Shown here one piece after another: positions 6,862-42,256 of a stretch of 64,000 bases of DNA (positions are counted from its first letter, which is position 1; every line of letters begins with the position of its first letter). The stretch spans positions 110,677 to 174,676 of the forward strand of contig CAVPDQ010000022.1 in assembly GCA_963702685.1 (NCBI GenBank), written 5' to 3'. The notes below the pieces were generated by a model that did no database searches, was not told the origin of the DNA, and saw nothing but the letters and a program-made list of their open reading frames with translations. Position numbers and translations under genes: made by a program. Source of the stretch: an uncultured Alphaproteobacteria bacterium. Lineage in GTDB: Bacteria > Pseudomonadota > Alphaproteobacteria > ATCC43930 > CGMCC-115725.

Positions 6862-6885
6862 AGGGTGGTCCTCCCGAAAGGGGGG

Positions 6886-6911
6886 CAAAGAAAAACCCGC
6901 CTGAGGCGGGT
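6886..6911 (-). terminator. Intrinsic terminator-like hairpin between the scaffold/protease and capsid genes
   Basis: The minus strand reads ACCCGCC-TCA-GGCGGGT followed by TTTTCTTTG. Confidence 0.55.
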
Positions 6912-6976
6912 CTGAGTGTGGTTCCGAGGTGAAGCGAGCGATGCTTTGGAACCGTACGGTGCTGGATCGAGCTACA

Positions 6977-9161: not shown

Positions 9162-9533
9162 CTAGGGGCCCGTGCAGAGCACCGTCGAATTGAGGCTCAG
9201 GATACGTCCGTCGTTCAATGCGACGGTGGCTTCGAGCACGTAGGTGGCGCCCAAAGCGGACGCTGGCATGCCCCCGACCGAGGCGATCGAAAAGAATCCG
9301 GCGCGGGTTTGCAGCGTGCCTGAAAGCGGATCGCGCGTTTGGATCGCGGTAGCGATCTCAGTCGCAATGATCCGCGATTGCGGGCTCGGATCCATCCCGG
9401 TCTGGTATGGAGCCAGCGCACAAGTCCAGGCGGACGACACCAGCGTCGCCGCTCCGATATCAGCGGTGAAATCGAATGCAAAATTGTCGATCTCGCCGAT
9501 TTCGATCGGGTCGAACGCAGTGGGCAAGCGCAT
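9162..9533 (-). CDS. Hypothetical phage protein (123 aa), small beta-rich adaptor-like
   Basis: The pattern FDPIEIGEIDNFAFDFTADIGAATLVSSAW resembles, from memory, small phage fibre/tail adaptor or Ig-like proteins. This is a weak call. Confidence 0.45.
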   Translation of the reverse strand: MRLPTAFDPIEIGEIDNFAFDFTADIGAATLVSSAWTCALAPYQTGMDPSPQSRIIATEIATAIQTRDPLSGTLQTRAGFFSIASVGGMPASALGATYVLEATVALNDGRILSLNSTVLCTGP

Positions 9534-9534
9534 G

Positions 9535-10227
9535 TTAAATTCCCTTTATCACCCGCACACGACCAACCCTTCCAAGAAGCCGGCGCCGCCCCGGGGAACG
9601 CAGGAGCCGGTCAACCGATAAGGGCCGCGGCAGGTTTTCCAACCACTCGATCCAAGCTATCGTATCAGCAGCTTCGAGCGTGCCCGTGGTCCCTGCCCAC
9701 TCGACTGGTATTCCAGCTTCGACTTCTGAAGTCCTGACCCAGGCATTGGCAAAGCTGGCATAGACCATTCCACTTGTAAGGTGTGTCGTAGGTAAGCCAG
9801 CAACTCCGTCAGACCCGGCTAAAAACCCGATCGCCGCAAGGTCATCTCGAACAGTCGCGATGGCACCAGACCATTCTGCAGGCGCGCGATGCTCGCGCTG
9901 GGTGAGCCTCTGAATTTCGGTCGGCGTCTCAATGCGCGCGGCGTAAACGAGCAGCTGCCATTCCGGCAGCATCCCTATATCCCGGCGCGCCGCTTGCAGC
10001 GATTCTAGCTTTGCACCGGCGGGACAGCGCACTACCGGCAGGACTTCCGCCGTCTCTGCCAGCTCCCTGCTGAGGGTGCCGAGGCTTCCAAATGGTGTCC
10101 CGGAATCGGCCTTCCACGTCGCAAGGCTTCCTAGTGAGCAAGCTGCGTTGGTGACAACAACAGAACCAATTTCGCCCGTGTCGATCGTCTCGATGGTGAC
10201 GATCGCACCGAGGTCGCCGAAGATCAT
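9535..10227 (-). CDS. Hypothetical phage protein (230 aa)
   Basis: ORF in the operon with a 1-nt gap to the next gene. No motif. Part of it looks slightly lower in GC. Confidence 0.5.
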   Translation of the reverse strand: MIFGDLGAIVTIETIDTGEIGSVVVTNAACSLGSLATWKADSGTPFGSLGTLSRELAETAEVLPVVRCPAGAKLESLQAARRDIGMLPEWQLLVYAARIETPTEIQRLTQREHRAPAEWSGAIATVRDDLAAIGFLAGSDGVAGLPTTHLTSGMVYASFANAWVRTSEVEAGIPVEWAGTTGTLEAADTIAWIEWLENLPRPLSVDRLLRSPGRRRLLGRVGRVRVIKGI

Positions 10228-10244
10228 CTCAGCCTACCCGCCCT

Positions 10245-11048
10245 TCAGGGCTGCGCCCCGTAGCAGGCGACCCCTATCATCGCGGTCGCCGCACCGCTCG
10301 CTTGCGCGCGCGCGGCGATCCGGGTTCCCGCCGGGATCATGCAAGGAAGACCGATCCCCTGGGCATTGAAGGCCGCGTTGGCAACGAGGGGGACACGGAA
10401 CAGCGCTTGCTCGTTGGGCGACGCGCCCCAACCGATTTCGATGTAAATCTGACCGCTGGTTCCCATCCCCATCGAGGTGTTGAGGCAAAGAGGGGTTGCC
10501 CAAAGCATCCCAATATCGGCGGGCGTCGATGCGTTGACCGTCACCCAGCCGGTGAGGGTGGTCCCATTCAGCGTGATCGGATTTGTCGGGTCGCTGCCGG
10601 AGAGATCGGTGCACGACACGATGCGGCTAAAGCCCTGCGCCAGCGCCGAGCTGCGGTAGCCGGTGACCGCAACGCGCGTCGCCGAGCTCCCGAGCGTCTC
10701 GGTCGCCACCTTGGCCTTGATCGCAGCGCCCGATGGCACTCGGATCGGCAGATCGATGTGCGCCGTAAACGAGTTGGCTACTGCCATCGCGTTGAACGGG
10801 ATGCTGTCGGCGATGGTTGCGTCGGCCCCGCCGGTGTTGGCGGTGAGCGAAACGATGCCGCGCCGCTGAGACGCAGAGCCTATGCTGAGGGTCAAGCCGT
10901 CATAGGCAAAGCCGGCGGTGCCGATCGTCGTCAGCGTGCCGAAGGTCCCGGCGGTTGCTCCCGATGTTACGGTCGTGGCCGAGCCCGAGCCCGAGAAGCC
11001 GATTTGCTCGAACTGCGCGCCGCGGGCGCGGGCGTAGCCATAGCCCAT
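10245..11048 (-). CDS. Hypothetical phage protein (267 aa), Gly/Ala/Thr-rich
   Basis: ORF in the operon frame. No recognisable motif. Confidence 0.5.
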   Translation of the reverse strand: MGYGYARARGAQFEQIGFSGSGSATTVTSGATAGTFGTLTTIGTAGFAYDGLTLSIGSASQRRGIVSLTANTGGADATIADSIPFNAMAVANSFTAHIDLPIRVPSGAAIKAKVATETLGSSATRVAVTGYRSSALAQGFSRIVSCTDLSGSDPTNPITLNGTTLTGWVTVNASTPADIGMLWATPLCLNTSMGMGTSGQIYIEIGWGASPNEQALFRVPLVANAAFNAQGIGLPCMIPAGTRIAARAQASGAATAMIGVACYGAQP

Positions 11049-11049
11049 C

Positions 11050-11421
11050 TCAGGCGCCGTTCAGGTTGATGACGCGCCAAGTAAAGCTGCGGCTGGCGGT
11101 CGAGCCCGCCTCCAACAGCGCCGTCACCTTGAAAAAGTCCGGTGTCGGGAAGGGTGCGGTCCGGAACACGTCATAAGTCGGCGCGTTCGGGCCGAGCGTG
11201 AAATCGTCCTCGACACGGCTGTTCGAGCCGTCGCCGGACGTGTAGACGCGGATGCGGATCGTGTCGCCGTCCGCTTGGGTAGAGGTGTCCATCAAGAGCA
11301 TGAAGGTGCCGCTGGCCGCCGTCGCGCTCGCCAGCGTCGTCTCGGTCACGTTGTCGCTCGGCGCCCAAGTGCCGCTCGCCGGGTTCGGGCTCAAGAGCGC
11401 AGTGACGGCAGGGCCGGCCAT
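11050..11421 (-). CDS. Hypothetical phage protein (123 aa)
   Basis: ORF in the operon. Its start shares one base with the upstream stop. Confidence 0.5.
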   Translation of the reverse strand: MAGPAVTALLSPNPASGTWAPSDNVTETTLASATAASGTFMLLMDTSTQADGDTIRIRVYTSGDGSNSRVEDDFTLGPNAPTYDVFRTAPFPTPDFFKVTALLEAGSTASRSFTWRVINLNGA

Positions 11422-12503
11422 TATGTTGTCGTCCCTTGCGTCCGCAGGTCACCTGATCCCTTATAGGCGGCCGTCCCTGCCGGCAAAGTCAGGCGCAGCC
11501 ATAGTCCTTGCGCCCCGGCACTGTTGGGCGAGCCACCCGACGGCAAATTTCCGGGGCCCGGAATATTGACCAGCGCCGGTTGGGTTACGAACGAGCCAAC
11601 GCCTACAGCCGGTGCGGTCTGCCGATTGGCCGAGGTGTTGGTGTCGTTCAAGGAAGCGCACAGCGCCAAATCGAGCAGCGCGCCCGATGGCAGGCTCGGT
11701 GTTTCACTCAACACTTCGATTTGTGCTGCGGTCAGCGCCGTTGTGCTATTATTGTTGACCACAAACAACTTCTCGTAAAAGAGCCGGCTTGATCCACTCG
11801 GAACGTCTGCCGCCGCTGTCGCAAAACACCGGGTGATGAATTTCACCTGGTTTGGCGACGACTCGAACAGCATTCCTTGATTGACATTGTAGATGGTGGT
11901 GGCGTCCGGGACCGTGCCCCAATCTCGGTTGACCGCGACAACGTCGGCACCATAGCCAGAAGTCGCGATGATTTGGCGGAGCTGCTGAGCTCCGGTGCCG
12001 CCGGTCGTCCGGATGATCTGACCGACCGACACGTTCGCGCCGTCTCCGGATTGCATTTTGAGGAGTGCCGGCGTGGCGCCGGCATGGTTGGCCGATCCCG
12101 TTTGTGCGGTATGGGCGCTGATCACCGCGGTATGCGAAAGCAACGCGACGTCGCCAGCTGCGACGGTGCCGGCGACGGTCGCAATCGGCTTGCTGGCACC
12201 GCCACCGCCGGAGATGGCGGCATAGAGCAGGCGCTCCATGACCTTGGTGCCGTTGACCACGGTCTGGCCGTTGAGCGTCAAGGTCTCGTTTTGAACGACC
12301 CCGCTCGCATCGCGGCCGTAATAGGTGATTTGGGTCGCGGTATCGGAAACGGAGCTCGACACCACATCCAACAAACCCGTTGGAGTGATATCGTAAAAGG
12401 CGACGCGGCTCGAAAAATCTACAGCTCCGCCGATCGTCGCGCCATCGGTCTCGGGCATGTCGGCACAGCCGTACACCACGAGATCGGAAGGAAGAACGCT
12501 CAT
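11421..12503 (-). CDS. Hypothetical phage structural-like protein (360 aa)
   Basis: First ORF after the portal, beta-rich, with the C-terminal motif GLWLRLTLPAGTAAYKG. No family assigned. Confidence 0.55.
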   Translation of the reverse strand: MSVLPSDLVVYGCADMPETDGATIGGAVDFSSRVAFYDITPTGLLDVVSSSVSDTATQITYYGRDASGVVQNETLTLNGQTVVNGTKVMERLLYAAISGGGGASKPIATVAGTVAAGDVALLSHTAVISAHTAQTGSANHAGATPALLKMQSGDGANVSVGQIIRTTGGTGAQQLRQIIATSGYGADVVAVNRDWGTVPDATTIYNVNQGMLFESSPNQVKFITRCFATAAADVPSGSSRLFYEKLFVVNNNSTTALTAAQIEVLSETPSLPSGALLDLALCASLNDTNTSANRQTAPAVGVGSFVTQPALVNIPGPGNLPSGGSPNSAGAQGLWLRLTLPAGTAAYKGSGDLRTQGTTT

Positions 12504-12646: not shown

Positions 12647-14009
12647 TTAGTCGGGATTTTCGCTTTGTGTCTGTGAGTCGGCGGTTCCGGCCAACGGTAC
12701 CGGGCCTCGCGAAGCCAAAAAGACCGGTTGATCGCCGCCATCGACGGGCGGCAGGCCAAGGACGCCGCGCGCCTCGTTAGGCGCATAGATGCCTGATTTG
12801 ACGTAGGTATCCAGAATAGTCGCCTGATCCTTGGGATTGGTCGAGCGCACGTCGGACCAAACGAACTCAAGGTCTGTATGGCCCATAAAATCTTGAATAA
12901 CACTGTCGATCAAGCGCTTGACCCAGCCGGCGAGCGGCGCCAATCCCTCCTCGAGGGCTGCCGCCTGGCTTGCCTCGGCGGTCGCTCGGTTGACTTGCGG
13001 TGTAAATGCAGTCGGCGGCAGGGAAAAAGCGTAGCAGACAATCCTCGCCAGCCATTCGTCGAACTCGTCCTTGTACGGGGCTTCCTTAAAGGGCTGGTAT
13101 TTGGTCCCCATGGGAGCCCAGACGAGGCGGGTCCGGGTGCCGGTGTTCCCCGCCAGGATCGAGTTCGAACCACTCCTGGAACTGCCGGATCTGCTCTGCA
13201 TTCCAGCCGTCCGGCGCATTCAGCAGACCCGGCGGCACATTGCCTTCGGTAAAATGTTGCAGCTGCATCATCTGGCGCCGCAATCCGATATTGATCGTCG
13301 TCACGATCTGCTCGCACGGGCTGAATCCATAGACTTTGTGCGGGCGCCTGTTGCGCGGCTGGTAAAGCAGCTGGTCGCTGGTCAACAATCGCCATGGTCG
13401 GCCGTGGATAACCTGCTCGTAGGCCGGCGCGGGCGGTCGCGGCCGGCGACCGGTGCCATCGATCAGCACCTTGATCGTCGAACCGTCGACGATGTCGAGG
13501 CCAATGATGTCGCCGGCCCGGTTTCGCCGCAATTCGAAAGCTGACGCATCGAGCACCAGCACGTCCTCGAGCACTTCGCGCAGCCAGGTGGCAAAGCGCT
13601 GCTCGCCATCGGGCTTGCGCCAAAACTCGGTCAAACTCCCGATACGTGCATTAGCCTCCGGCTGCGGCTGTTTTGGATTCCGCGAGCGGATCGCCCAATC
13701 CAGCTTTTCGATCTGATCTTTGCGCGTCTCGATCGCCAAGCGGGTGATGTCGTGGTGCTCTGCCAGGGCGCGCAGCTCGTGAAAGCCGATCGGCTCATAA
13801 GAACGCGGCGTGTAAATTGTGTTGTAGCCGACCGGAAAATTCCACAGCCGCACCTGCTCGCGATCGGGCGGGACCAGAGGAAAGCCGGGTGAGAAAATTC
13901 CCTGGTCGGGCTGAAAGACATCGCTGAATTGCGTGAGGTCGTTCTGTGAGCCAAAACCGCCCCAGGTGTAGGAGGCGACAGAGGCGTGATTTTCGTTGGA
14001 CGGGGGCAT
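12647..14009 (-). pseudogene. Phage portal protein, reading frame broken by a single-base frameshift near 13164-13166 (or an assembly indel)
   Basis: The N-terminal part (14009 down to ~13165) and the C-terminal part (~13165 down to 12647) lie in different frames and read through as ...QFQEWF/(D)SILAGNTGTRTRLVWAPMG... Combined length is ~450 aa. A GAGG box precedes the ATG at 14009. Confidence 0.65.
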
Positions 14010-14013: not shown

Positions 14014-14940
14014 CTACCTCGGGAAACCATGCGCGCTGGCACGCCGCGATGTCGCCGCTCCGACCAGGGACGCCATCAGCTCGTCATCGGGAAACACGAG
14101 AAATCCGAATGGATTTTCCAGCGTCCGAAAAATGACGTCATCGCTCAGAATCGTATTCCACGTGGCGGCGAACAATACAGTCCCCTCCAGAAATGTGTTT
14201 TTATTGACGCCGGCTACGACCGAGTTTGCGAAATTGGCCTCGTCCCATTGGCCCGGTGCCTTCGCCGAGCCGGCAATAGTGCTTTTCGACCGGTCATAAA
14301 AGAGATTTGCTGTTCCGGCGGCGTAATCGAGCGTCAGTACTGCTGAAAATGGCTGGCCTACGACAACAGATTGGGCAAAGACCCCGATTGTCGTGTTGTT
14401 TGTTACCCAATTCAGCGAGAAACCTAAGGCGTTGGCGGCAATTTGCAAGCTTACGCGCTGAGGCACGGCATGTCCCTCGATCCCCATCAAGGTTTGGGCG
14501 GTGGGGAGCTGCGCGTTCACCTGGGCGACCACCAGCATCGTCTGCTGTATCGGGCTCGATCGCCATGGACCCGTGCCGGCGGCGATTGTAGTGTAAATAT
14601 ACTGTGAGCGGCCGTCGAAGCCGCAGCCTTGCCCGGCTGTCGTTGTCGCAGGGCTAAATGCTGCAAATTGTGTCCGGTATGGATACCCACGCAGCGATAA
14701 TCCCCACAACGGGGCTCCCCCGGCACCCTGATTGACATTGTAGGCCGAGCCGTCGAGGTGGTAAGCGTCGACCATAAATTCGGTGATCGGATCATCGGCA
14801 AGACGTGGAATACCCGGCGGTCGATAAAGACCGCGCGAAATTCGCGGGCCTACGCCGATTGCGTCCGCAGGGCGTGTCGTCATCAACCCCGTGCTGGTGG
14901 CGGCGAGCCCGGCCAACACGTTCCGCCTGTTTGGACGCAT
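14014..14940 (-). CDS. Exported protein with twin-arginine-like signal, possibly a jelly-roll/lectin-like fold (308 aa)
   Basis: Start moved to the internal ATG at 14940 (TGATG overlap). N-terminus is MRPNRRNVLAGLAATSTGLMTTRPADA. The upstream extension of the tracked ORF is Arg-rich junk. Confidence 0.55.
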   Translation of the reverse strand: MRPNRRNVLAGLAATSTGLMTTRPADAIGVGPRISRGLYRPPGIPRLADDPITEFMVDAYHLDGSAYNVNQGAGGAPLWGLSLRGYPYRTQFAAFSPATTTAGQGCGFDGRSQYIYTTIAAGTGPWRSSPIQQTMLVVAQVNAQLPTAQTLMGIEGHAVPQRVSLQIAANALGFSLNWVTNNTTIGVFAQSVVVGQPFSAVLTLDYAAGTANLFYDRSKSTIAGSAKAPGQWDEANFANSVVAGVNKNTFLEGTVLFAATWNTILSDDVIFRTLENPFGFLVFPDDELMASLVGAATSRRASAHGFPR

Positions 14941-15479
14941 CAATATTGCACCGCTGTCGGCGCGAGGACCACGGTGTTTCCCGAGACGTTCAGTGTCTGG
15001 CCGCTGTTGTTTTGGCACAGCAGCTTGAACCTCAGCGCCGGCACCCGAACCAGGCCTTGCGACAAGAAGATCGAGGTGCCGGACACCGACGTGGCCGGTA
15101 ACGGAAAGACGACATCGGGCGCGCGTGGCGGGGCCGAGGTCCCGCTCTCGAATGCCGCTCCGTCGACGGTTTGTAAAAACCAGCAAGAGACATTGCCGCC
15201 GGTATTGATTGCGCCGGCCGTCGCGCCCAAGGTCAGGATCATCGGCGCCCAAATCACTTGCGCTGAAATGGCATTGTTGAATACGCCGCTTGTCCCGCCG
15301 AGTGCGCTGACCGCTACCGAGCCCGAAGCCAGGGCGTTGAGCTCCGTGCTCATCAATGTCTCGGCCGCCGCGAAAAGCCCAGTGTTCGAGGGGCCTGGCT
15401 CCCACAGAAACGGCGTCGCTGCGCGAGCCGTCAACGGCGCGCCGACGGCTAAGGCGAGCATCAGCCAGCGTCGCATCAT
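14940..15479 (-). CDS. Exported hypothetical protein (179 aa)
   Basis: The start at 15479 overlaps the upstream stop (TGATG). The signal-like N-terminus is MMRRWLMLALAVGAPLTARA. An alternative ATG lies at 15491. Confidence 0.55.
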   Translation of the reverse strand: MMRRWLMLALAVGAPLTARAATPFLWEPGPSNTGLFAAAETLMSTELNALASGSVAVSALGGTSGVFNNAISAQVIWAPMILTLGATAGAINTGGNVSCWFLQTVDGAAFESGTSAPPRAPDVVFPLPATSVSGTSIFLSQGLVRVPALRFKLLCQNNSGQTLNVSGNTVVLAPTAVQY

Positions 15480-16432
15480 CAGTTTACCCATGAGTTGCCC
15501 GCTGCATCGCAGGTGACGGCGCGCGCGTCGTAAGGCGGCGCTCCCGGAGTGCTGGCGCCCATGACGAAGCTGGCGCCGCCGTCGATAGCGCCGGTCGAGG
15601 GGGCCAGCGTGATCGCATTGCCGGCATCGTTGCCCGCACCGTCTTTAACCAGAAAGGTAAACCCGGGAGAACAGGTGAAACTTACTGTCGTCGCGGCCGG
15701 CGTCGTCTTGTCGATCACGATCAAATAGTCCGCAGCAGGTGACACGATAACGGGGCCGGATGCTGTGACCACCCGGATCGGCACGAAGAGCGCGCCGCTC
15801 CAGGTTGACGTTCCGGCGTAGGTGTTGTTGCCGGCGAAGATCATGTTCGCGGTCAGGCTCGTCGGCAGGCGCCCCGCCGGCAGCGTGCCGGACGCAATGT
15901 TTGCGGCATTCGTCGTATCCACCGCGCAAGAGGCGGCCGCGTTCGACAGATCGTTGCACGAGGGCTGCGATGAATGCGGGCCGCCGGCGGTCGAGATGCT
16001 GTCGAGCCATTGATGCGCCACACTGGCGAAGCTCGTGACCCCGCCTAATGCGGTGGGCGCCGGCGAAGGCAGGTCGGCCCCCGAAATTTCCCGAGGCACG
16101 AGCCCGCCGCCCGACCCGTTCGGTGACGCCAAGAACATGTTGGCAGCTTGTGTCACGGTCGTAAGCGACAATGTCCCGGCGGATGTAACCGGACTGCCCG
16201 ATACCGCGAGCCAGGAGGGCGCGGTCAAGCCGACGCTGGTCACCGTGCCGCTTCCGGCAGAGCCACCGTCCTCGATTTGGCCGCTGCCCGCCCAAGTGGC
16301 GACGTGACCGGCTGTAACGGCGCCCGCTTGACTGATGCCTCCGCTCGTCACGCTATACTGCACCGATTGAGACCAGGCCGAGGTGCTCCCCAATAGTAGT
16401 GTTGCAGCCCCCGCGACGAGCGAAAGCCTCAT
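15479..16432 (-). CDS. Tail-fibre-like protein with a signal-peptide-like N-terminus (317 aa)
   Basis: The start at 16432 forms an ATGA overlap. N-terminus is MRLSLVAGAATLLLGSTSAWS. Fibre-type motifs are present: GTVTSVGL, SGSPVTSAGTLSL and ASGTLPAGRLP. Confidence 0.55.
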   Translation of the reverse strand: MRLSLVAGAATLLLGSTSAWSQSVQYSVTSGGISQAGAVTAGHVATWAGSGQIEDGGSAGSGTVTSVGLTAPSWLAVSGSPVTSAGTLSLTTVTQAANMFLASPNGSGGGLVPREISGADLPSPAPTALGGVTSFASVAHQWLDSISTAGGPHSSQPSCNDLSNAAASCAVDTTNAANIASGTLPAGRLPTSLTANMIFAGNNTYAGTSTWSGALFVPIRVVTASGPVIVSPAADYLIVIDKTTPAATTVSFTCSPGFTFLVKDGAGNDAGNAITLAPSTGAIDGGASFVMGASTPGAPPYDARAVTCDAAGNSWVN

Positions 16433-16821
16433 TGCGCTCTCGCCTTGAAAAACGCGGTTGGGCTCGCGGTCTTGGTAAAACATCCCGTCGTGCTAAATAC
16501 AGCGACTATCCCACGAGTATAAATATCGGGCGGACCCGTGAAATTGATCGAAATCGTGCTGTTTATCGGCGCCACCACACATTCGACCGGCGTCACCGGT
16601 CCATCTGCGGGTGCTGTCGCGGCGTTGAAGGTCATCACAAAACCGGCCGTGCTTCCGGTCGTCACGTAGAGCGAATAGAGGTTTCCGGGACCGCTCTTGA
16701 TCAATCGACTGGCTTCGACGGCGGATGAAACCACCGGAGCGATCCCGGGCTCGAATGCCCAGCCGTGCCGGTTGGCGAGGACTAATATCAATAGGCAAGC
16801 AGGCCCCAAAATTCTTTGCAT
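16429..16821 (-). CDS. Small exported hypothetical protein (130 aa)
   Basis: ATG at 16821 is preceded by GAGG. N-terminus is MQRILGPACLLILVLANRHGWA. Confidence 0.55.
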   Translation of the reverse strand: MQRILGPACLLILVLANRHGWAFEPGIAPVVSSAVEASRLIKSGPGNLYSLYVTTGSTAGFVMTFNAATAPADGPVTPVECVVAPINSTISINFTGPPDIYTRGIVAVFSTTGCFTKTASPTAFFKARAQ

Positions 16822-16830
16822 CTTCACCTC

Positions 16831-19395
16831 TCAAAATGACGAGAGCGGCGCCCGCTTCCACGTGTTCGGGGCTGAGCAAAAGTAGACATAATTGATGTCG
16901 GCCTGAAGCTGGCCGGTGTTGCATGCCGCCGAGCTGGAGGCGGGGGTGCCGGGCGAAATCAATCCGCCGAGATCGTTGATCGTCTGAGGCGTGGCCGACA
17001 CGACCCGAAAGTTGCTGCCGTCGAAGCGGAGCTGGAGATATTCATAATTCTGGCCTGCGGCGACAGCGATCGAGGAGACCGCCGCACCACCGCCTGCCGG
17101 TTCCAAGATTGCGCCGCCGGAGACGCCGTTGACCCGTACGGTAAGCGATTTGCCGTTGTCCGTCGTAAATCCCATGGTCCAGCCGGCGCCAATCGTGGTT
17201 GTGGACGGCAAGGTCACGGTGAGGCCGACGGCGGTGTTGAAGCTCGACAAGGCATTGCCGTTGTCGCTCGTTGCGGCGGCATAGGTTGCTGCCGATGGAA
17301 AATTCCAGCGGTTGATGTCGGTGGCCGAGCCGGCGATGCCGATCAGCGCCGCCGTCGCGGGCGTCGCATCGGTGACGCGGAAATTGCTGCCGTCGAACCG
17401 CAGCACCACAAACTCGTAGCTGCCAGGCGCCAACGACGCTGTGGTCACCGTAGCGCCGCTGCCGGGATAGAGGATATGACCGCCTGAGACGCTGTTGGCT
17501 TGGACCGAAACCGTCTTGTTGTTGTCCGTGGCGAGCGCTATCGTCCAACCCATCGGGAGGCTGGTGGTGGGGGGCAGGGTCACGGCCAGAAACCCGAGCG
17601 GGCTGTTGGAGCTCGACACGATATTGCCGTTGTCGGCGACGCTGGCATCGTAGGCGCTGACCGCAGGAAAGCTCCAATGGCTGAGTGCCGTAGCACCCAG
17701 CATTCCAATCGCCTGGGCGGTCGCGGGCGTCGCCTGGACAACCCGGAAATTGCCGCCCCCGTCATATTGCAGCACCATGAATTCGTACGCCCCCTGGCTG
17801 GTGTTTGCCATGGCGACGCTGGTCACCGATGCGCCGCTGCCGGGCCAGACGATGTGGCCGCCCGAGCTGCTGTTTACCGCAACCGATAGCGGCTGCCGGC
17901 TGTCGGTGGCAAAGCCCAAGCTCCAGCCGGTGGGCAATCCGGTTGTCGGCGGCAACGTAACGGCAAGACCCGAGGCGGTATTGAAGCTGGACAGCACATT
18001 GCCGTTGTCGGCGAGGGTCGCGGAATACCCGGAGCTCGATGGATAGAGCCAATTGCTGGGCCATGGCGGCGGCTCAAAACCATTCGTCAGGCGGGTGTTG
18101 CGGGTGGAAGAGACCAGGCGCCAATTATTGCCGTCGGATTGCAGGCGAACATATTCGTAGTTGCCGGCGCCGAGGGTGATCGAGGGTTGGAACTTGTTTC
18201 CCGAGACGATACTGCCGCTGGGTGCGGCCACGATCATCCCTTTGCCGTTGTCGGTGGCGAACGCCATCGTCCAGCCGGGATTGACATCGGCGATCGGCGG
18301 CAATGTGACCGTCATCGACGCGCCGGGCGTGTTGAAGCTCGAAATCGCCATGCCGTCATCGATCGGCGCCGCAGTGTAGGTGGCCGCCGTCGGAAACAGC
18401 CATTGGGTGCGCGATCCGGTCCCTTGAACTGAAATGCCGATCGAGTTCGGCCCGAAGTTCACAGTGTTTCCGCCATAATTCGGATTGATCAGCATATTGC
18501 CGATCGATGCGGTCGCATCGACCGCCGTAGCGCAATCGAAATAGGGCGAGACGAAGGTGTTGAGCCCGTTGTGGTTGAATGTAATCGACAGGCAGGTTGG
18601 CGACGCTTCCAAGTCCAATCCAAAAAAGGTATTTGAAAAGTTGAAGCCGTTTTCCAGGACGAGCGCGCGCCCGCCCGTTGCCTGCGCCGTGCCGGCCCCG
18701 GAAATTCGGGAGAATTGGGTCTGCTCGAACGCCATTCCGGCGCCACCGCCTGCCGAGTCGCAAACCGCATAGATGTCGCTGTCGAGCACCGAGTTGAATT
18801 GGCAACCGCCGGCAGCGGACGCGCTCGACGCGTTATTGACGACCAGGTGATCGATCTTGGCCGAGTTATGGGCATCCGAAAAGTCGGTCTTGCCGATGAC
18901 GACGGCGTAGGTCGGGGTGGCCGCATCGATAAAGAGCGTGCCTTCCTCCTTGAAATAAAAGCATCCGGTCGGGCTGCCGACAGTGCCGCCGCTGCATTCG
19001 ACCTGCAGCACCGGCCCTGAAGCGATGCCGCGGCCGTCGATAACCGCGCCATCGGAAACCAGCCGGAAGCCTCTGCCGGCTTGTCCGGCATAGTCGATCG
19101 TCAGCTCGGCGGTCACTTTGTAGGTGCCAGCCGATAGATAAACCGGCCAACCGTTGGCGATCCCGCTGTCGATTGTGCTCTGGATCGCTCCGGTGTCGTC
19201 GTGACTGTCGTCGCCGACGGCACCGTTGCAACGGATGTCGATCCATGGGTGGCCGCTGCACACCAAGACGTCGCCGCCAAGGGTCGCGGTGCCGGTAGTC
19301 GACAAGGTCGAAAAATTGCCCGGTGCTTGCGCTAGGCTGGGCCAGGCGATCCCGAATCCCAAGCTGAGCGCGGCAAGTCCCAGCGCCGTCTTCAT
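16831..19395 (-). CDS. Pectate-lyase-fold (tailspike/depolymerase-like) protein with a signal-peptide-like N-terminus and four C-terminal tandem domains (854 aa)
   Basis: Start moved to the ATG at 19395 (TGATG overlap with the upstream gene). N-terminus is MKTALGLAALSLGFGIAWPSLAQA. It carries the motif NGAVGDDSHDDTGAIQ...VYLSAGTYKV and four ~100-aa repeats. Confidence 0.65.
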   Translation of the reverse strand: MKTALGLAALSLGFGIAWPSLAQAPGNFSTLSTTGTATLGGDVLVCSGHPWIDIRCNGAVGDDSHDDTGAIQSTIDSGIANGWPVYLSAGTYKVTAELTIDYAGQAGRGFRLVSDGAVIDGRGIASGPVLQVECSGGTVGSPTGCFYFKEEGTLFIDAATPTYAVVIGKTDFSDAHNSAKIDHLVVNNASSASAAGGCQFNSVLDSDIYAVCDSAGGGAGMAFEQTQFSRISGAGTAQATGGRALVLENGFNFSNTFFGLDLEASPTCLSITFNHNGLNTFVSPYFDCATAVDATASIGNMLINPNYGGNTVNFGPNSIGISVQGTGSRTQWLFPTAATYTAAPIDDGMAISSFNTPGASMTVTLPPIADVNPGWTMAFATDNGKGMIVAAPSGSIVSGNKFQPSITLGAGNYEYVRLQSDGNNWRLVSSTRNTRLTNGFEPPPWPSNWLYPSSSGYSATLADNGNVLSSFNTASGLAVTLPPTTGLPTGWSLGFATDSRQPLSVAVNSSSGGHIVWPGSGASVTSVAMANTSQGAYEFMVLQYDGGGNFRVVQATPATAQAIGMLGATALSHWSFPAVSAYDASVADNGNIVSSSNSPLGFLAVTLPPTTSLPMGWTIALATDNNKTVSVQANSVSGGHILYPGSGATVTTASLAPGSYEFVVLRFDGSNFRVTDATPATAALIGIAGSATDINRWNFPSAATYAAATSDNGNALSSFNTAVGLTVTLPSTTTIGAGWTMGFTTDNGKSLTVRVNGVSGGAILEPAGGGAAVSSIAVAAGQNYEYLQLRFDGSNFRVVSATPQTINDLGGLISPGTPASSSAACNTGQLQADINYVYFCSAPNTWKRAPLSSF
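16990..18402 (-). repeat. Four intragenic tandem repeats of ~100-118 codons
   Basis: Repeat units start at WLFP, WLYP, WSFP and WNFP. They share the core DNGN.LSSFNT..GL.VTLP....GW...F.TDN........GG.I.....YE...L..DG.NFRV..AT. Confidence 0.8.
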
Positions 19396-19832
19396 CACCA
19401 CCGCCGTGCCGCAAACGCCTGTCCCGTCGTAGCACCCAGGAGGCTGACGACCCCTGCCGGTCGATATCCAGCAGGTGTCGCGAAAACGCCGCCCGCGGCA
19501 ACCGGTATCGACGCGCCGCCGGAAACCGCGGCGCCGACATCGGAAACATAAAGCACTGCCGACGAGTTGTTCGCCACGAGATAGCCATTGGTCGGCGCTA
19601 CACCGCCGAACAATGTCTGCGCCGAACCGCCGATCGCCACTGTCCCGCTGCCGTCGAGCGCGGCGGATCCGGCCGCATTGATCACTGGCAGCGGGGCAGC
19701 GCTGCTGATCGGGGTCGCGATGCCGCCGGCAATCGTCGCCGGCAAATGAACCGGGACCAGGTTGCCGCCGCCGTCGAGCCCGGTCGCGAGCGACTGCGTC
19801 GCAGTATTGGCGTCCTTGACCAGCAGTGTCAC
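19395..19832 (-). CDS. Hypothetical Gly/Ala-rich phage protein (145 aa)
   Basis: First ORF after terL: MTLLVKDANTATQSLATGLDGGGNLVPVHLPA... It has better coding character than the overlapping Arg-rich extension of the 1026-aa tracked ORF. Confidence 0.55.
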   Translation of the reverse strand: MTLLVKDANTATQSLATGLDGGGNLVPVHLPATIAGGIATPISSAAPLPVINAAGSAALDGSGTVAIGGSAQTLFGGVAPTNGYLVANNSSAVLYVSDVGAAVSGGASIPVAAGGVFATPAGYRPAGVVSLLGATTGQAFAARRW

Positions 19833-19907: not shown

Positions 19908-21272
19908 TCAAGCCTTCGGCGGGTCGAATTCCGATCGCCGATCGTTGAGCCGCCGGTACACCTCATAGATCCCTTGGGCGGCGCCGGGCTCGATCAGCAA
20001 GTCGGTCAATGCCCAAACCAGGGCATCGACCCGGTCGGGAGAATAGCCGGCGGCCTTGCTGTCGAAATCACCTCGCGGACCACGGCTGAAGGTGCACATC
20101 TGGTCTTCGAGCCGCGCGAACGAGCCGACATGATGAACTCGGCCTTGCTCATAGAGTGCCGCGACCGGCTCGGCGCGGGTGATCTTGCCGCGCGCCGCGT
20201 GCACCGCGGAAAACGAAGCGTTAGGGTCGATCACCCGCAGCGTGGCCTCGACCATTTCACCACCGTTATTGACCTCGGCGACAATCCGGTCGGCCCGATG
20301 GGCGCGATAGGCCGCGATCGCCACCTTCGCCCACGCGGCTGGCGTGTAGCGGCCCGATGCATCGGCCAGCACCCAGCCATGCCCTTGGCTGTCTTTGCCG
20401 GCGACGACGATCCCGGTCTCGTCTGCCTCGTCGCCCGAGCTGACCGCCGGATCGATCGCAACCACCACCCGTTCGAGCTCCGGCGGCGAAGGGCTGCGGC
20501 ACGCCTCGATTAGGCCCCGGCTCCAGAGGGCGCCCGGAAGATCGTCGAGAAGCTCGGCCTCGAGCTCTTGACGGCCGAGGCGCGTTCCTTGGTACTTCCG
20601 AACGATCCCGGTCAAAAAATCGGGCGCCAGGTTGGCGCGGTTCTCAAAGGTCGTGCCGCGGGTCAGGGCGATTTTCGAATCGCCGAGAAGGCCACGGATC
20701 AGGCTTGTCGGCCGCGGTGTCGTGGTGACGACGACTCGCGGGTCCGAACCGAGGCGCAGACCGAACATCAGCATGTCCCAGGCCGCGGGATAGCGCCAGC
20801 TGCCGAGCTCGTCGCACCAAGCCGCATCATGTTGAGGGCCGCGCAACCGCTCCGGCTCGTCGGCGCTGAAGAGCGTGGCAGCGGCGCCGTTCGGCCAGGT
20901 CAGCCGTCGCTTCGACGGCTCGTAGAGCGGGCGATCATCGGAATGCGAAATCTCGAGGATACCGCTCTCCCCCTCGACCATGACGTTACGCGCGTCGGTC
21001 GCGGTAGGTGCCACCAGCGCCACCCGGCGCGCTGTTCCCGCCCGCACCCGCGCCCGCACATATTCGGCGCCGGCTCGTGTCTTGCCAAAGCCGCGGCCGG
21101 CTATCAGCAGCCAAACCCGCCAATCGCCTTCCGGCGGCAGCTGGGCACGCCATGCCCAGAACGACCATTCATCGAGCAGTTTCCGCGCCTGGGTCCGGCT
21201 CAGCCCGCTGATCAGCCGGTCCCTCAGCGCTGGCGGCTGCGAGGCGAGCCAGGCGGCGTTTAAGGACCTCAC
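19908..21272 (-). CDS. terL: Terminase large subunit
   Basis: 454 aa with Walker A GRGFGKTRAG and the N-terminal pattern LLDEWSFWAWRAQLPP typical of this terminase family. GTG start is preceded by GGAGGAGGA. Confidence 0.9.
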   Translation of the reverse strand: MRSLNAAWLASQPPALRDRLISGLSRTQARKLLDEWSFWAWRAQLPPEGDWRVWLLIAGRGFGKTRAGAEYVRARVRAGTARRVALVAPTATDARNVMVEGESGILEISHSDDRPLYEPSKRRLTWPNGAAATLFSADEPERLRGPQHDAAWCDELGSWRYPAAWDMLMFGLRLGSDPRVVVTTTPRPTSLIRGLLGDSKIALTRGTTFENRANLAPDFLTGIVRKYQGTRLGRQELEAELLDDLPGALWSRGLIEACRSPSPPELERVVVAIDPAVSSGDEADETGIVVAGKDSQGHGWVLADASGRYTPAAWAKVAIAAYRAHRADRIVAEVNNGGEMVEATLRVIDPNASFSAVHAARGKITRAEPVAALYEQGRVHHVGSFARLEDQMCTFSRGPRGDFDSKAAGYSPDRVDALVWALTDLLIEPGAAQGIYEVYRRLNDRRSEFDPPKA

Positions 21273-21750
21273 GCGGGTCCTCCTCCGGATCGTCCGGCGC
21301 AGGCGGTTCGAGCGGCCGCGGGGCGGCGTCGAAAATGCCGAGATGGCGCGCGAGAACGTCGAGCGCGGCCTTTTTGTCGTATAGCTTCACCCGATGGTTC
21401 TTGCTTCCCGGCGCGCCGGCAATCTCTGAAATGGCTGCCGTGTCGGCATCGTCGAGCCGGTCCGGCGTCTTCAGCACCACCCCGTCGGGGCCCCAGTCGG
21501 CAAGCCGGGCCAAATCGGCAAAGGCGATACGGGCGTATTCCCGCAGCACCCGCTCGGGCGTCACGCCGAGACGGGCAGCACGTTCGGCAATCTCGTCGGG
21601 CGCGGTTGCAGGTGTCGAATTCGGTTTTGCAGCGGCCACCGCCTTGGCGCGACGTTTCGCGTTCGCCGACCGAGGCGCGGGCCACCCACTGGAACGACTC
21701 GTCAATGTCGATGCTCTCGCTGCATTCGATTCGCTCATAGTGTGGTCCAA
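21169..21750 (-). CDS. terS: Terminase small subunit
   Basis: Shows the small-terminase pattern LGVTPERVLREYARIAFADL...VKLYDKKAALDVLARHLG. Its 3' end overlaps terL by 104 nt. An ATG alternative start lies at 21738. Confidence 0.7.
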   Translation of the reverse strand: MDHTMSESNAARASTLTSRSSGWPAPRSANAKRRAKAVAAAKPNSTPATAPDEIAERAARLGVTPERVLREYARIAFADLARLADWGPDGVVLKTPDRLDDADTAAISEIAGAPGSKNHRVKLYDKKAALDVLARHLGIFDAAPRPLEPPAPDDPEEDPREVLKRRLARLAAASAEGPADQRAEPDPGAETAR

Positions 21751-21945
21751 GATGCACGTTGGCGTCGGGCCTGCCGCTCAAAAGCGATGTTCACAGGCAA
21801 CGAGGCCACCTTCGAACCGCAGAGATCGCGACCGAGCTTGTCAGGACAGCGCGACAGTGAATGCGGCGGCCGCCCCGTGTCGGCGTTTTGCCCTGCGTCG
21901 GCGTTCCGCCTCGGCCTCGTTGCCCATCTTTTGCAGTGTGACGCT

Positions 21946-21974
21946 CTTATAGCATATCGATCCGGATTTGTCAA
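21946..21974 (-). promoter_or_regulatory. Near-consensus sigma70-type promoter upstream of terS (late operon)
   Basis: The minus strand reads TTGACA-aatccggatcgatatgc-TATAAG, with a 17-nt spacer and a TGc extended -10. It is an A/T-rich patch in a GC-rich context. Confidence 0.6.
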
Positions 21975-21982: not shown

Positions 21983-22561
21983 TCATCTTTTCGCAACGCT
22001 CGGACGATAATGCGGTTCGAGCGCGCCGAGTGCAGCGATCAAAATCCCGGAAGCCGATTCCTGGCTGACGCGGCGCCCGCTCCATCCCTGCTCCGCGGCC
22101 CACTCCTTCAGCGACCGCTCCCAGCCGACAACGTGCCATAAGCAAGAGCCGCCCGGCGACCCGAGACCGCCAACCGCGAGAAGCGCCCGCCAAACCTGGT
22201 CGCGGGCATTTTCGATCCGCGAGCTTCGCTGTTCATCGTTGTTCTGAGCTCGCGCCCGGCCGCTCCGCAGTCGCGACCAGTCGAGCGATCGCAGCGGGTC
22301 GAGCTGGGCGACGGCAAAGGCGCTACGGAAATCCTCGCCGGCTTGGCGCATTCCCGACGTTATCGATCCGCGCCGCTCCATGACCGCCAAGGTGTCCACC
22401 ACCCGGTAGGGCCGGGCCGGCCGCCCTACGCTGTCGGCAATCGCTCGCTCGATGCGCTCAACCGGGTCATGTCTGCGGCGCTCCGCAGTTGGCGTTGCCT
22501 CAGCAACCCCCAAATCCGCGTGATTTTGCGCAATGCTGCGAGAAGATGCTGTGCGTGTCAT
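21983..22561 (-). CDS. Hypothetical phage regulatory-region protein (192 aa), possible late-gene activator
   Basis: Start at 22561 forms an ATGA overlap with the upstream gene. The C-terminal segment CLWHVVGWERSLKEWAAEQGWSGRRVSQESASGILIAALGAL looks HTH-like. The function is a guess. Confidence 0.5.
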   Translation of the reverse strand: MTRTASSRSIAQNHADLGVAEATPTAERRRHDPVERIERAIADSVGRPARPYRVVDTLAVMERRGSITSGMRQAGEDFRSAFAVAQLDPLRSLDWSRLRSGRARAQNNDEQRSSRIENARDQVWRALLAVGGLGSPGGSCLWHVVGWERSLKEWAAEQGWSGRRVSQESASGILIAALGALEPHYRPSVAKR

Positions 22562-22902
22562 CCCAATCTCCGAACATATAGTGAACGATGCGAGCAAGAA
22601 AAAACCCGGAGCGCCTTTTCCAGCTTCGCGATGAAACGAGGCGGCGGTCCTGCGCTATCGCTGCCGCGGCGGCCGCCGACCGCGCCTGCCAGCACCTCGA
22701 TTTCGCCCAGTCGGCGGACTGCGGCCTTGCTGCCTTCGGGCAAGTAGCAGAGAGCGTGATGATGCTGGCAATAGCTCGATCCGGGCCGTCGGGGTTGGCC
22801 GCACCTCGGGTTCCGACCTTGCCCGTCGAGCGGATAAGCGCACCCGTCATCGTCTCGCCGCCGGGCCCGCGCCAGCTCGTTTGCCGCCTCGTGCATCCGC
22901 AT
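22558..22902 (-). CDS. GcrA-like protein (114 aa)
   Basis: CAYPLDGQGRNPRCGQPRRPGSSYCQHHHALCY matches the C-terminal C.[WY]P...CG...G..YC.HH...Y pattern of GcrA-family proteins. Confidence 0.5.
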   Translation of the reverse strand: MRMHEAANELARARRRDDDGCAYPLDGQGRNPRCGQPRRPGSSYCQHHHALCYLPEGSKAAVRRLGEIEVLAGAVGGRRGSDSAGPPPRFIAKLEKALRVFSCSHRSLYVRRLG

Positions 22903-22925: not shown

Positions 22926-22991
22926 TGCCACTATCGCATTGCCATGATAGTGTGGCACCAGCGTTGTGTCAATAGCTATTTGTGGAAATAG
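22926..22991. promoter_or_regulatory. Operator cluster between the repressor and the GcrA-like operon
   Basis: Inverted repeat TGCCACTATC (22926-22935) / GATAGTGTGGCA (22946-22957). Palindrome AATAGCTATT at 22971-22980. Inverted repeat CTATTT..AAATAG at 22976-22991. All share ATAG/CTAT half-sites. Confidence 0.55.
22944..22972 (-). promoter_or_regulatory. Near-consensus promoter for the GcrA-like operon
   Basis: The minus strand reads TTGACA-caacgctggtgccacac-TATCAT with a 17-nt spacer. The -10 lies inside an inverted repeat. Confidence 0.55.
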
Positions 22992-22995
22992 CACA

Positions 22996-23670
22996 ATGAA
23001 CATCGCCTGGTTTCACCAAGCGCTGGAGCGGGCCGGGGTGTCGCAGGCGGACCTCGCCCGCCATCTGCGGCTTGCACCCTCGGCGGTGTCGCGCATGCTC
23101 AAGGGCGAGCGTCAGATCAAGCCGATCGAGTTTGTCCACATTGCGAGCTTTCTCGGCGTGCCGCAGGAAGAGGTTCTGCAGCACGCTGTCGAGGGCACGA
23201 CATCCGTGGCGCCGGCTGACGCGCCGCGACCGGGACGCGGCCGCCCACCCTCCGCATCGATCGGCCTGTCGGCGAGGCCGGCTCAAGAAGCGGACCGGAT
23301 CCCGATTCGCGGTGCGGCGCGCGGCGGCACCGACCAGGAGATGTTCCTGCAAGACGAGATCGGCTACACGCCGCGACCCGCCAATCTGTCCGGGGTGCGG
23401 GCCGCCTATGCGATATATATGGTCGGCGACAGCATGGAGCCCCGCTACGAGCAGGGCTGGCTATTGCATGTAAACCCGTTCAAGCCGCCGATCCGGGGGC
23501 GCGACGTCATTGTCCACAAGGCCGGCCAGATCGTGCTGATCAAGCAGTTCGTCGGCTGGGAAGGCGACACTTTGGTGCTGCGCCAGCTCAACCCTCCGGA
23601 CACTTTGCGCATCCCCCGTGGCGAGGTGCGCGAATGCCACCTCGTCGTCGGCGCCGACCAGGAGGGATGA
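22996..23670 (+). CDS. CI/LexA-like repressor (XRE HTH plus S24 peptidase)
   Basis: N-terminal HTH (GVSQADLARHLRLAPSAVSRMLKG) and a C-terminal S24 domain with GDSMEP and a downstream Lys. The ATG at 22996 has no obvious SD, and a GTG alternative lies at 22966. Confidence 0.85.
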   Translation: MNIAWFHQALERAGVSQADLARHLRLAPSAVSRMLKGERQIKPIEFVHIASFLGVPQEEVLQHAVEGTTSVAPADAPRPGRGRPPSASIGLSARPAQEADRIPIRGAARGGTDQEMFLQDEIGYTPRPANLSGVRAAYAIYMVGDSMEPRYEQGWLLHVNPFKPPIRGRDVIVHKAGQIVLIKQFVGWEGDTLVLRQLNPPDTLRIPRGEVRECHLVVGADQEG

Positions 23671-23706: not shown

Positions 23707-26301
<2,595 letters not shown>

Positions 26302-26368
26302 CGTGGGCCTGCTCCGCTGAACCGACCGCAGCACCCCTGATCAGGCGGCGCCGCGACCCTTCAGGGCC

Positions 26369-41073: not shown

Positions 41074-42198
41074 ATGGTGAGCCGGAAAATCACTCTCGAC
41101 GACATCGAGGCGCTGGCGGTCGGCGCCTGGGTGCTCGGCACCGGAGGCGGGGGCAGTCCCTATCTCGGCCTCCTCAACATGCGCCGGCTCTATGCCGAGG
41201 GGCATCGGGTCGAGCTGATGCCGGCCCACGACCTGGCCGATGCGGATTGGGTGGCGGTCGTCTCGAATATGGGCGCGCCGCTGGTCGGGCAGGAGCGGCT
41301 CGCGGATAGCCGCAACATCGCCCGCGCCGTCGAAATCCAGCAAGAGCTGCTGGGCAGCGGCGCCAAATTCCGCGCGGTGATGCCGCTCGAAATCGGCGGC
41401 AACAACTCGATCCAGCCATTGATGGCGGCGGCGCATCTGGGCCTGCCGGTGGTCGATGCCGACACAATGGGCCGCGCCTACCCCGAGGCGCAGATGACCA
41501 GCGTCGCGGTTGGCGAATTGCGGCCCTATCCTTGTGTGCTCTACGACCCGCGCGGCATCGAGGCGGTGGTCCGGAGGGTGCCGAGCTGGAAATGGATGGA
41601 GCGGGCGAGCCGCCGGATTTGCGTCGAGATGGGCTCGATCGCGTCCACCTGCAAAGCCCCGCGCACCGGCGCCGAAGTGAAGGAATGGGGCATCCATTTC
41701 ACCGTCACCAAGGCGATCGGCATCGGCCGCCGGCTGCGCGCGGCGCAGCGCCGGCACGAGGACCCGGTCGCCGCGGTCCTCGACGAGGGCCGCGGCAAGC
41801 TCTTGTTTCGCGGCAAGGTCGTCGATGTTGCGCGGCGCACGACCGAGGGATATCTGCGCGGCCGGGCGGTCATCGACGGGCTCGACGACGATCGCGGCTC
41901 GCGGCTCGAAATCGCGTTCCAGAACGAATGGGTCGTGGCCTGGCGCGACAACACGCCGCTCGTCATGTCGCCCGATCTGATCTGCGTTCTCGACACGCTC
42001 TCCGGCGAGGCCTTCGGCACCGAAACGATCGGCTACGGCCGTCGCGTCTCGGTCATCGCCCTGCCGGCCCCACCGGTCTTCCTGACGCCGAAGGGCCTCG
42101 ACCATGTCGGCCCCCGCGCCTTCGGCTACGACCTCGATTTCCGCTCGGTTTTCGCAGAGGACTCGGCGAAATTCCTATTATTGGGCCAACCGGAATAG
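41074..42198 (+). CDS. DUF917-family (hydantoinase-like) protein
   Basis: Start set at MVSRKITLDDIE. Carries the motif LGTGGGGSPYLG. Confidence 0.7.
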   Translation: MVSRKITLDDIEALAVGAWVLGTGGGGSPYLGLLNMRRLYAEGHRVELMPAHDLADADWVAVVSNMGAPLVGQERLADSRNIARAVEIQQELLGSGAKFRAVMPLEIGGNNSIQPLMAAAHLGLPVVDADTMGRAYPEAQMTSVAVGELRPYPCVLYDPRGIEAVVRRVPSWKWMERASRRICVEMGSIASTCKAPRTGAEVKEWGIHFTVTKAIGIGRRLRAAQRRHEDPVAAVLDEGRGKLLFRGKVVDVARRTTEGYLRGRAVIDGLDDDRGSRLEIAFQNEWVVAWRDNTPLVMSPDLICVLDTLSGEAFGTETIGYGRRVSVIALPAPPVFLTPKGLDHVGPRAFGYDLDFRSVFAEDSAKFLLLGQPE

Positions 42199-42256
42199 TC
42201 TCTCACTCGAAGCGACGCTCCATGCTGCTCGCTTCGATTCTCAAGTCGCGTACCGG

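Follow-up and report, generated by a model that had tools for sequence, protein, structure and literature searches.

Six genes lie between the large terminase and portal genes

We analysed a 64,000-nt stretch of DNA from an uncultured alphaproteobacterium (assembly GCA_963702685.1, contig CAVPDQ010000022.1, forward-strand positions 110,677 to 174,676), called the window below, in which a cassette of six genes separates the gene for the large terminase subunit, TerL, from the portal gene of a phage-like element. Coordinates are those of the whole window, and genes are named by the length of their proteins in amino acids (aa). An original prediction, made from the letters of this DNA, had placed the cassette in the packaging and head operon, had assigned export signals to five of the six products and had noted tailspike- and fibre-like motifs in two of them. 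Our results partly support that interpretation, and they suggest that proteins of tailspike-, fibre- and lectin-like type are targeted to the Sec and twin-arginine (Tat) pathways from a site where a core gene pair is conserved across the lineage.

All six open reading frames (ORFs) were found on the minus strand where they had been predicted. In the direction of transcription, g145 (19395-19832), the cassette gene without an export signal, is followed by g854 (16831-19395), which has a Sec-type leader and a beta-helix, then by g130 (16429-16821), g317 (15479-16432) and g179 (14940-15479), each with a Sec-type leader and g317 also with a fibre repeat module, and finally by g308 (14014-14940), whose leader resembles the Tat type. 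The cassette is flanked by TerL (19908-21272, minus strand; Terminase_6N/6C) on one side and by the portal gene (12647-14009, minus strand; PF04860) on the other.

The predicted stop-start overlaps were all present: TGATG at 19393-19397, where the g145 stop overlaps the g854 start, at 15477-15481 and at 14938-14942, and ATGA at 16429-16432. The spacing between g854 and g130 is 9 nt. The TAG stop of g308 (14014-14016) lies 4 nt ahead of the portal ATG at 14009, again as predicted, and a GAGG Shine-Dalgarno sequence precedes that ATG. Between 12 and 24 kb, promoter-like sites (4 observed, 2.3 expected) and terminator-like sites (12 observed, 10.4 expected) occurred at chance level. The sole strong promoter of this interval in a sigma-70 scan, which alphaproteobacterial promoters may escape, was also the best of the region (22944-22972, minus strand; 11 of 12 consensus positions); it abuts the repressor gene of the element and faces the leftward operon. 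The guanine-plus-cytosine (GC) content of the cassette (0.59-0.66) is similar to that of the remaining element. Because the genes overlap and promoter- and terminator-like sites are not enriched, we conclude that the cassette is part of a single leftward operon with the packaging and head genes, in agreement with the original prediction.

The portal gene is broken in the window into ORFs of 318 aa and 190 aa by a single extra base at 13165. An independent short-read contig that is 99.96% identical (L081) does not have this base and encodes an intact portal protein of 453 aa, and the extra base is probably an indel of the long-read assembly, not the mark of a pseudogene. The ratio of nonsynonymous to synonymous substitution rates (dN/dS), calculated between the window and a 95%-identical relative, was 0.12-0.19 for all six cassette genes and 0.10 for TerL. 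All six genes are under purifying selection and are therefore functional.

Five cassette proteins carry conserved N-terminal leaders of the export type

Export signals were assessed with a home-made scorer based on the n-, h- and c-regions of signal peptides (a positive n-region, an h-region of 7-17 hydrophobic, uncharged residues, and small residues at -3 and -1), and the results were backed by homologue comparison. Scores for g854, g130, g317, g179 and g308 ranged from 3.97 to 4.93; the other window proteins (n = 23, including TerL, portal, capsid and ClpB) scored nothing or at most 2.5. Homologues were scorer-positive in 48 of 54 cases for g854, 15 of 15 for g130, 15 of 15 for g317, 15 of 16 for g179 and 13 of 16 for g308, and in none of 54 for g145. 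The starts of all five signal-bearing genes are set by a stop-start overlap or by a close Shine-Dalgarno sequence.

In each family (15-54 homologues), the leaders (first 17-30 residues) keep their pattern of charge and hydrophobicity while the sequence drifts. Column identity was lower for the leaders (0.43-0.56) than for the mature parts (0.68-0.79), g854 lying outside this measurement; for g130, g317 and g179 the values were 0.43-0.56 versus 0.73-0.79. Conservation rises to near-invariance at the predicted cleavage sites, which read AQ[SA]-PGNFSTLSTTGTATLGGDVLMCSGRPWIDVRC in g854, AWA-YEPGI.PVVS in g130, WAQS-VQYGP in g317 and AQA-ATPFLW.PG in g179; the window copies have ..GWA-FEPG in g130 and ..ARA-ATPFLW in g179. 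Proline at +1 is disfavoured by signal peptidase I. The AQ[SA]-P site of g854 puts a proline at exactly this position, which makes the cleavage after AQA implied by the original prediction less likely; an alternative conserved site, ..A-[LWGV]P[ST].., lies 7 residues upstream.

The Tat assignment of g308 is better backed by the family than by the window copy. R4 and R5 are invariant in 13 sequences, most homologues read SRRRFLAGLAA, and RRx[FLVIM] is present in 14 of 16 homologues. One of these, P0147, passes the TIGR01409 model (17.1 bits versus a cut-off of 16.7) and bears the NCBI name of a Tat-signal protein, but the window copy, with its NRRNVL leader, stays below the cut-off of that model. 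Taken together, comparison of the homologues supports the prediction that five of the six products carry N-terminal export signals.

g854 is a predicted beta-helix protein with paired cysteines

The pectate-lyase-fold signature attributed to g854 was confirmed by a match of residues 51-102 to PF12708 (30.9 bits versus a cut-off of 27, E 2.9e-7), which spans profile positions 1-54 of 213. The predicted beta-helix begins ~25 residues past the leader, and no N-terminal particle-attachment domain was seen in Pfam and PHROG scans. It is followed by four tandem ~122-aa repeats, visible in the DNA as 366-378-nt repeats; beyond these in-frame repeats, no template and variable repeats of the diversity-generating retroelement type and no further long repeats were found in the cassette. 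Weak sequence matches in the PDB were to a mannuronan epimerase and to beta-helix adhesins.

The ten cysteines of g854 are arranged as five pairs with short spacing. All 35 homologues have the pairs 46/56, 134/145 and 268/288; each cysteine of the pair 198/212 is present in 22 of the 35, and each of the pair 825/840 in 31. Since the counts are equal within each pair, the two cysteines appear to be present or lost jointly, as disulfides would be. The pattern thus points to disulfides formed in an oxidising compartment.

An exhaustive search of 1.84 billion representatives returned 945 relatives of g854. We inspected 16 long relatives (37-49% identity, 890-1512 aa): all start with signal peptides, have the beta-helix in common together with the first repeats or more, and differ in their C-terminal parts.

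The other signal-bearing proteins include fibre-like and lectin-like candidates

In g317, a fibre repeat module of ~70 residues (59-130) precedes a C-terminal domain. This repeat is common to proteins with PF13884 or PF18454 (Peptidase_S74 or Mtd_N), which upholds the tail-fibre motifs reported for this protein. It has four invariant cysteines. The mature part of g130 is 108 aa long and contains two invariant cysteines; g179 also has two and shows a weak match to a tail-fibre PHROG.

The AlphaFold model of g308 has a mean predicted local distance difference test (pLDDT) score of 50.6, with a beta-sandwich at residues 131-280 that reaches 54-87 per 10-residue block. The top 50 Foldseek matches of this low-confidence model in the PDB were all CBM40, pentraxin, LamG or sialidase lectin domains (E down to 9e-8, TM-score on target 0.55-0.64). 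The C-terminal ~170 aa of g308 are accordingly predicted to form a ConA-like lectin/LamG beta-sandwich.

The protein without a leader, g145, has an invariant N-terminus (MTLLVKDANT), and its C-terminal ~85 aa form a small beta-sandwich related to phrog_22789. Its structure model gave non-significant cupin/jelly-roll matches and matches to ~100-aa uncharacterised phage proteins. Searches of Pfam, PHROGs and NCBIfam to E 10 with g145, g130, g317, g179, g308 and the five genes that follow the portal gene gave nothing usable. PDB sequence searches with profiles of g308 and g317, and with single sequences of g854 and of the proteins p360 and p123b, gave either no match or weak beta-helix starts. 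The possibility that g130, g179 and g145 are paralogous small beta-sandwiches was rejected by hhalign (probability at most 8.5%).

The phrog_22789-like C-terminal domain of g145, which ends in ..IGATTGQAFAAREW, is widespread among unrelated viral contigs (L150 9920-10255, L155 9920-10270, L116, L147 and L158). There it is joined in some cases to a signal peptide of its own, in some to a Gly-rich N-terminal part and in one to a ~300-aa phrog_779 domain. We rejected the idea that distant g145-like genes generally precede those for signal-bearing proteins, as this was not so in the contigs examined. In another contig (L247, 2-475), a g854 relative is immediately preceded by a collagen-like gene.

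The cassette consists of a core pair and an optional four-gene block

A TerL scan of 185,579 species-representative genomes identified at least 235 related stretches, from which 80 loci were kept for comparison. The nearest genome record is an uncultured alphaproteobacterial metagenome-assembled genome (TerL 98% identical), the relatives are mostly labelled Stellaceae, and many viral contigs from soil contain the lineage too. Of the 80 loci, 55 had a g854 homologue, and wherever both genes of the pair were detectable, g145 and g854 sat directly between TerL and portal, with g145 starting 3-130 nt past TerL. Every locus that had a TerL of at least 67% identity and extended far enough contained the pair, except L042, L050 and L080. 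The block g130-g317-g179-g308 was present in 15 of the 80 loci, in constant order and between g854 and portal; in a further locus, L049, homologues of g179 and g308 are placed after the portal gene. In IMG/VR, the two-gene form was found in 32 viral contigs and the six-gene form in none. The cassette is therefore not the single six-gene unit that had been proposed, but a composite of the core pair g145 and g854 and an optional four-gene block.

The proposal that the genes were inserted fared better. TerL adjoins portal in the distant relatives L062, L064, L065 and L070 (TerL 63-65% identical) and in Brevundimonas phages, which argues that adjacency is ancestral and that the cassette is an insertion. 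TerL and portal are normally adjacent, as the original prediction noted, and no TerL-fibre-portal order turned up among 50,697 cultured-phage records. When these records were searched at the DNA and protein levels with the cassette region, TerL and portal were the only matches, and tblastn found no homologues of g854, g145 or g317 in them. Neither this comparison nor the scoring of the leaders contradicted the original prediction. The literature searched contained no report of a cassette of exported fibre-like proteins between TerL and portal.

In related elements, genes of the same kinds were found between TerL and portal and also at two other positions. The slot between portal and protease holds, in relatives, genes for 560-790-aa proteins with strong signal peptides (L013 10114-12225, L101 5531-7882, L019 17204-19480, L021 16219-18069 and L112 9105-11396), two of which match PF12708. 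Exported beta-helix proteins are thus predicted to recur as cargo in this lineage. In L248, a 37-kb phage contig, a 47%-identical relative of g854 is located past the tail-tip genes and a lysis-like cluster of small membrane and lipoprotein genes, and homologues of p123b and p360 follow it (14133-15116). This arrangement suggests that g854-type, p123b and p360 genes travel together and occupy differing positions.

The window itself has a second accessory slot at the portal-protease junction, which is usually tight. Here it holds five genes (360, 123, 267, 230 and 123 aa; 9162-12503, minus strand) of no recognised family, and none of their products has an export signal. Homologues of the first (p360) and the last (p123b) are the ones that accompany the g854 relative in L248.

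The carrier element may be a domesticated particle system

The element ends at a CI/LexA-type repressor gene (22966-23670, plus strand; helix-turn-helix and Peptidase_S24), whose stop is 36 nt from that of clpB (23707-26334, minus strand). No more than two or three small genes separate the repressor gene from that for the small terminase subunit, terS. On the other side of the portal gene, the same head operon continues downstream (5362-9115, minus strand) with a 712-aa prohead protease fusion that contains a DUF6582 segment and 10 cysteines (6977-9115, minus strand) and with the presumed major capsid protein of 548 aa (5362-7008, minus strand). The latter is assigned from position and size; it matches phrog_13692 (no function) and no Pfam family. 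Beyond the capsid gene come adaptor, neck and tail genes and, at the left edge of the window, a tape-measure-like gene. In relatives, the tape measure gene is followed by a DUF2460-like distal tail protein, a Phage_BR0599 hub, a small protein at the g14 position (no Pfam match) and, further on, a ~900-aa g15-like tail protein, a GH25 endolysin, membrane and lipoprotein genes and a host aminotransferase gene. In two relatives, the far end of the element runs into the aminotransferase gene (relatives including L275, L277 and L257).

Integrase and replication genes were not seen at either end of the element, a picture pieced together from several contigs. No tRNA gene or att site was found at its right end, where the repressor gene abuts clpB. 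The same host gene order, with the repressor gene abutting clpB, was present in 26 of the 80 loci; other loci lie away from clpB. Among 14 clpB-adjacent loci, distances of TerL, portal, g854 and g145 correlated with those of the host flanks (rho 0.47-0.56, Mantel p 0.002-0.01), which indicates from the sequences compared that the element co-diverges with its host. By analogy, its architecture resembles that of a gene transfer agent (GTA) or of the defective prophage PBSX more closely than that of an ordinary temperate phage.

Possible roles of the signal-bearing proteins

We tentatively favour a late function at the surface of the producing cell, in which the cassette proteins, once exported, would target the polysaccharide on that surface and so help particles to leave or keep them from re-adsorbing. 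Operon coupling, export signals, the cysteine pattern, glycan-directed folds and selection together suggest this role. The cassette genes would be transcribed and translationally coupled with the packaging and head genes and thus be made once the repressor is lifted. Their products would then cross the inner membrane, g854, g130, g317 and g179 by Sec and g308 by Tat, and fold in the periplasm, probably with disulfide bonds. In the periplasm or at the cell surface, the g854 beta-helix enzyme may cleave or modify the producer's own surface polysaccharide, which the fibre-like g317, the lectin-like g308 and the small g130 and g179 may bind. Particles could in this way escape the capsule or exopolysaccharide (EPS) matrix and would not be lost by re-adsorbing to the lysing producer or to debris. 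Such a receptor-destroying or receptor-masking role would fall to proteins that stay out of particle assembly in the cytoplasm, and for g854 the lack of a visible particle-binding N-terminal domain is consistent with this. The cassette is probably needless for adsorption and basic lysis, as relatives encode a tail-tip protein of their own for host recognition and the usual lysis genes. XepA of PBSX in B. subtilis is a precedent: it is made late and exported, and particles lack it (PMC6834076).

It is possible, if on the unlikely side, that the proteins are instead genuine fibres or spikes of the head or tail, which depend on the oxidising periplasm for their disulfides and join the particles at lysis or during exit through the envelope. 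Much of what speaks for such appendages also weighs against surface conditioning by free proteins. The genes are translationally coupled within a morphogenesis operon; the core pair co-diverges with TerL, and the divergence of g854 follows that of TerL (Spearman rho 0.88) like that of a core structural gene. The four-gene block, on the other hand, is absent from most relatives. The g854 family is tailspike-like in its modularity, with a conserved N-terminal part and swapped C-termini, and the C-terminal 39 residues (~40) of g854 match the end of phrog_17312, a 'tail protein', but an N-terminal adaptor domain is not visible. A near-invariant segment just past the leader (PGNFSTLSTTGTATLGG) could be a docking strand, and the cysteine pairs are conserved. 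The g854 relative in L248 is near the usual position of fibre genes, beside the p360 and p123b homologues, and g317 has its fibre repeat module, but the tail already possesses a g15-like host-specificity protein. Sec or Tat routing of virion proteins was not found in the literature searched, and no tailed phage or GTA is known to us to use such a route.

Several other points tell against the favoured role. Conservation is uniform over the length of g854, unlike that of typical fast-evolving receptor-binding proteins; the short stretch of the PF12708 profile that is matched leaves catalysis putative; both AlphaFold models are low in confidence (pLDDT 50.6 and 58.9); and the assessment of export relies on a home-made scorer.

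An unlikely proposal, which draws on the architecture of the element, is that of a vertically inherited, repressor-controlled GTA- or PBSX-like particle system, lacking integrase and replication genes, in which conserved beta-helix, fibre and lectin proteins routed by Sec and Tat would be disulfide-matured in the periplasm and loaded at or after lysis.

The proteins could also be surface factors expressed in the lysogen, such as moron-like cargo, adhesins or superinfection exclusion proteins that benefit the host or block related particles. We regard this as decidedly unlikely. That late regions may encode exported proteins is familiar from morons (lambda lom and bor), and the four-gene block has the patchy distribution of such cargo (15 of 80 loci) and can occupy another slot, as in L049; the core pair, however, is not patchy. 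The different large signal-bearing beta-helix proteins in the portal-protease slot of relatives fit cargo as well, but the stop-start overlaps bind the cassette genes to TerL and portal, their GC content matches that of the remaining element, and the flanking promoter- and terminator-like sites are at chance level in a scan that may miss alphaproteobacterial promoters. Co-divergence with the host makes a host benefit plausible, and cellular adhesins that bear signals and resemble phage fibres are present in Bdellovibrio (PMC10769870). The option of lysogenic conversion by a temperate phage, one of those raised in the original prediction, is weakened, because the element comprises a repressor gene and packaging, head, tail and lysis genes only, with integrase and replication genes not seen. 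The three functional options of that prediction (lysogenic conversion or surface remodelling, exported exclusion proteins and an unusual route of fibre delivery) are inseparable by sequence alone.

It is very improbable that the hydrophobic N-termini are mis-called starts, membrane anchors or oligomerisation helices of cytoplasmic virion proteins: the proline at +1 in g854 would block cleavage there and could leave an anchor, and the window copy of g308 falls below the Tat model, but the five starts are fixed, the n/h/c architecture is kept despite sequence drift, the twin-arginine motif recurs in the g308 family with one member passing the model, the cysteine pairs fit an oxidising compartment, and none of the 23 other window proteins has a comparable signal.

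Comparison with known systems

According to the accepted view, tailed-phage particles, fibres included, are built in the cytoplasm. The cassette proteins share with P22 gp9, the K1F endosialidase and the T5 L-shaped fibre a right-handed beta-helix, fibre repeats, C-terminal swapping and the 'tail protein' motif. Those tailspikes and fibres differ in having no signal peptide, in folding in the cytoplasm, in possessing an N-terminal particle-binding domain and in being encoded at the tail end of the genome.

Morons such as lambda lom and bor, T5 Llp and Cor are similar in that they are signal-bearing, lie in or near late structural regions and act on the envelope. They differ in that each has a promoter and terminator to itself and often deviates in GC content; neither trait was seen in the cassette. 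Moreover, known morons are small outer-membrane proteins or lipoproteins of sporadic occurrence, whereas here an 854-aa beta-helix protein belongs to a core pair that is lineage-wide. To our knowledge, the exported late proteins of phages comprise lysis proteins and a few small envelope proteins.

In the Rhodobacter capsulatus GTA (RcGTA), TerL is directly followed by portal, and head spikes and tail fibres are encoded elsewhere. The present element appears similar to RcGTA in its set of head, tail and lysis genes, with integrase and replication genes not seen, its g12-g15-type tail tip, its conserved chromosomal site and its co-divergence with the host. It differs in its CI/LexA-type repressor and in a capsid gene without an HK97 Pfam match.

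XepA resembles the cassette proteins as a late-operon protein of a domesticated phage-like particle element under a repressor, but it is found in a Gram-positive host, in a lysis cassette and not between TerL and portal, and it is a single protein with an unrelated fold. Its structure (6i56) gave the sole structural match, to g145, and this Foldseek match was non-significant (E 0.85).

Endolysins and spanins exported by Sec or by signal-arrest-release sequences are likewise late phage proteins that the host Sec system exports before lysis, and exported endolysins are the only exported class described in a review of the subject (PMC6116005). They differ in being peptidoglycan hydrolases or membrane-fusion proteins encoded in lysis cassettes, and the present lineage has a separate leaderless GH25 endolysin, with membrane and lipoprotein genes, after its tail genes. 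The mosaic adhesive trimer (MAT) fibres of Bdellovibrio also combine a signal peptide and a conserved domain with variable adhesive tips that include lectin folds (PMC10769870), but they are chromosomal predator genes unlinked to a head-tail operon, and a sequence relationship with the cassette proteins was not found.

Exported phage accessory proteins and beta-helix depolymerases are thus already known. What was not found described is the presence of tailspike-, fibre- and lectin-like proteins with predicted Sec and Tat targeting conserved at the TerL-portal junction of an element that is widespread and may be domesticated. If they condition the surface of the producer, they would represent a new class of factors that promote exit or prevent re-adsorption, with a bearing on how phages live in EPS-rich soils and on the search for depolymerases. 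If they are particle parts, the rules of virion assembly would change, and loading after periplasmic maturation would make this the first particle of tailed-phage type with host-recognition appendages that mature beyond the cytoplasm. In either case, the cassette offers a way to test ideas about a soil family that is abundant but uncultured, and about what may be a domesticated particle system.

Other features of the window

The terS gene (21169-21750) was placed on the minus strand on the basis of its matches to phrog_2606 and phrog_51. Public gene calls on identical Logan contigs omit terS and annotate a 205-aa ORF antisense to it (21335-21952, plus strand). A 204-aa ORF encoding a DUF6456 protein (21983-22597, minus strand) lies upstream of terS, as it does in relatives, and is called as 192 aa in L081 and L082. 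On the host side, a local dip in GC content (0.57-0.61 against a background of 0.65-0.69) was observed at 42001-45000, and two tandem tRNA-Val (CAC) genes are located at 63437-63616 on the minus strand, distant from the element.

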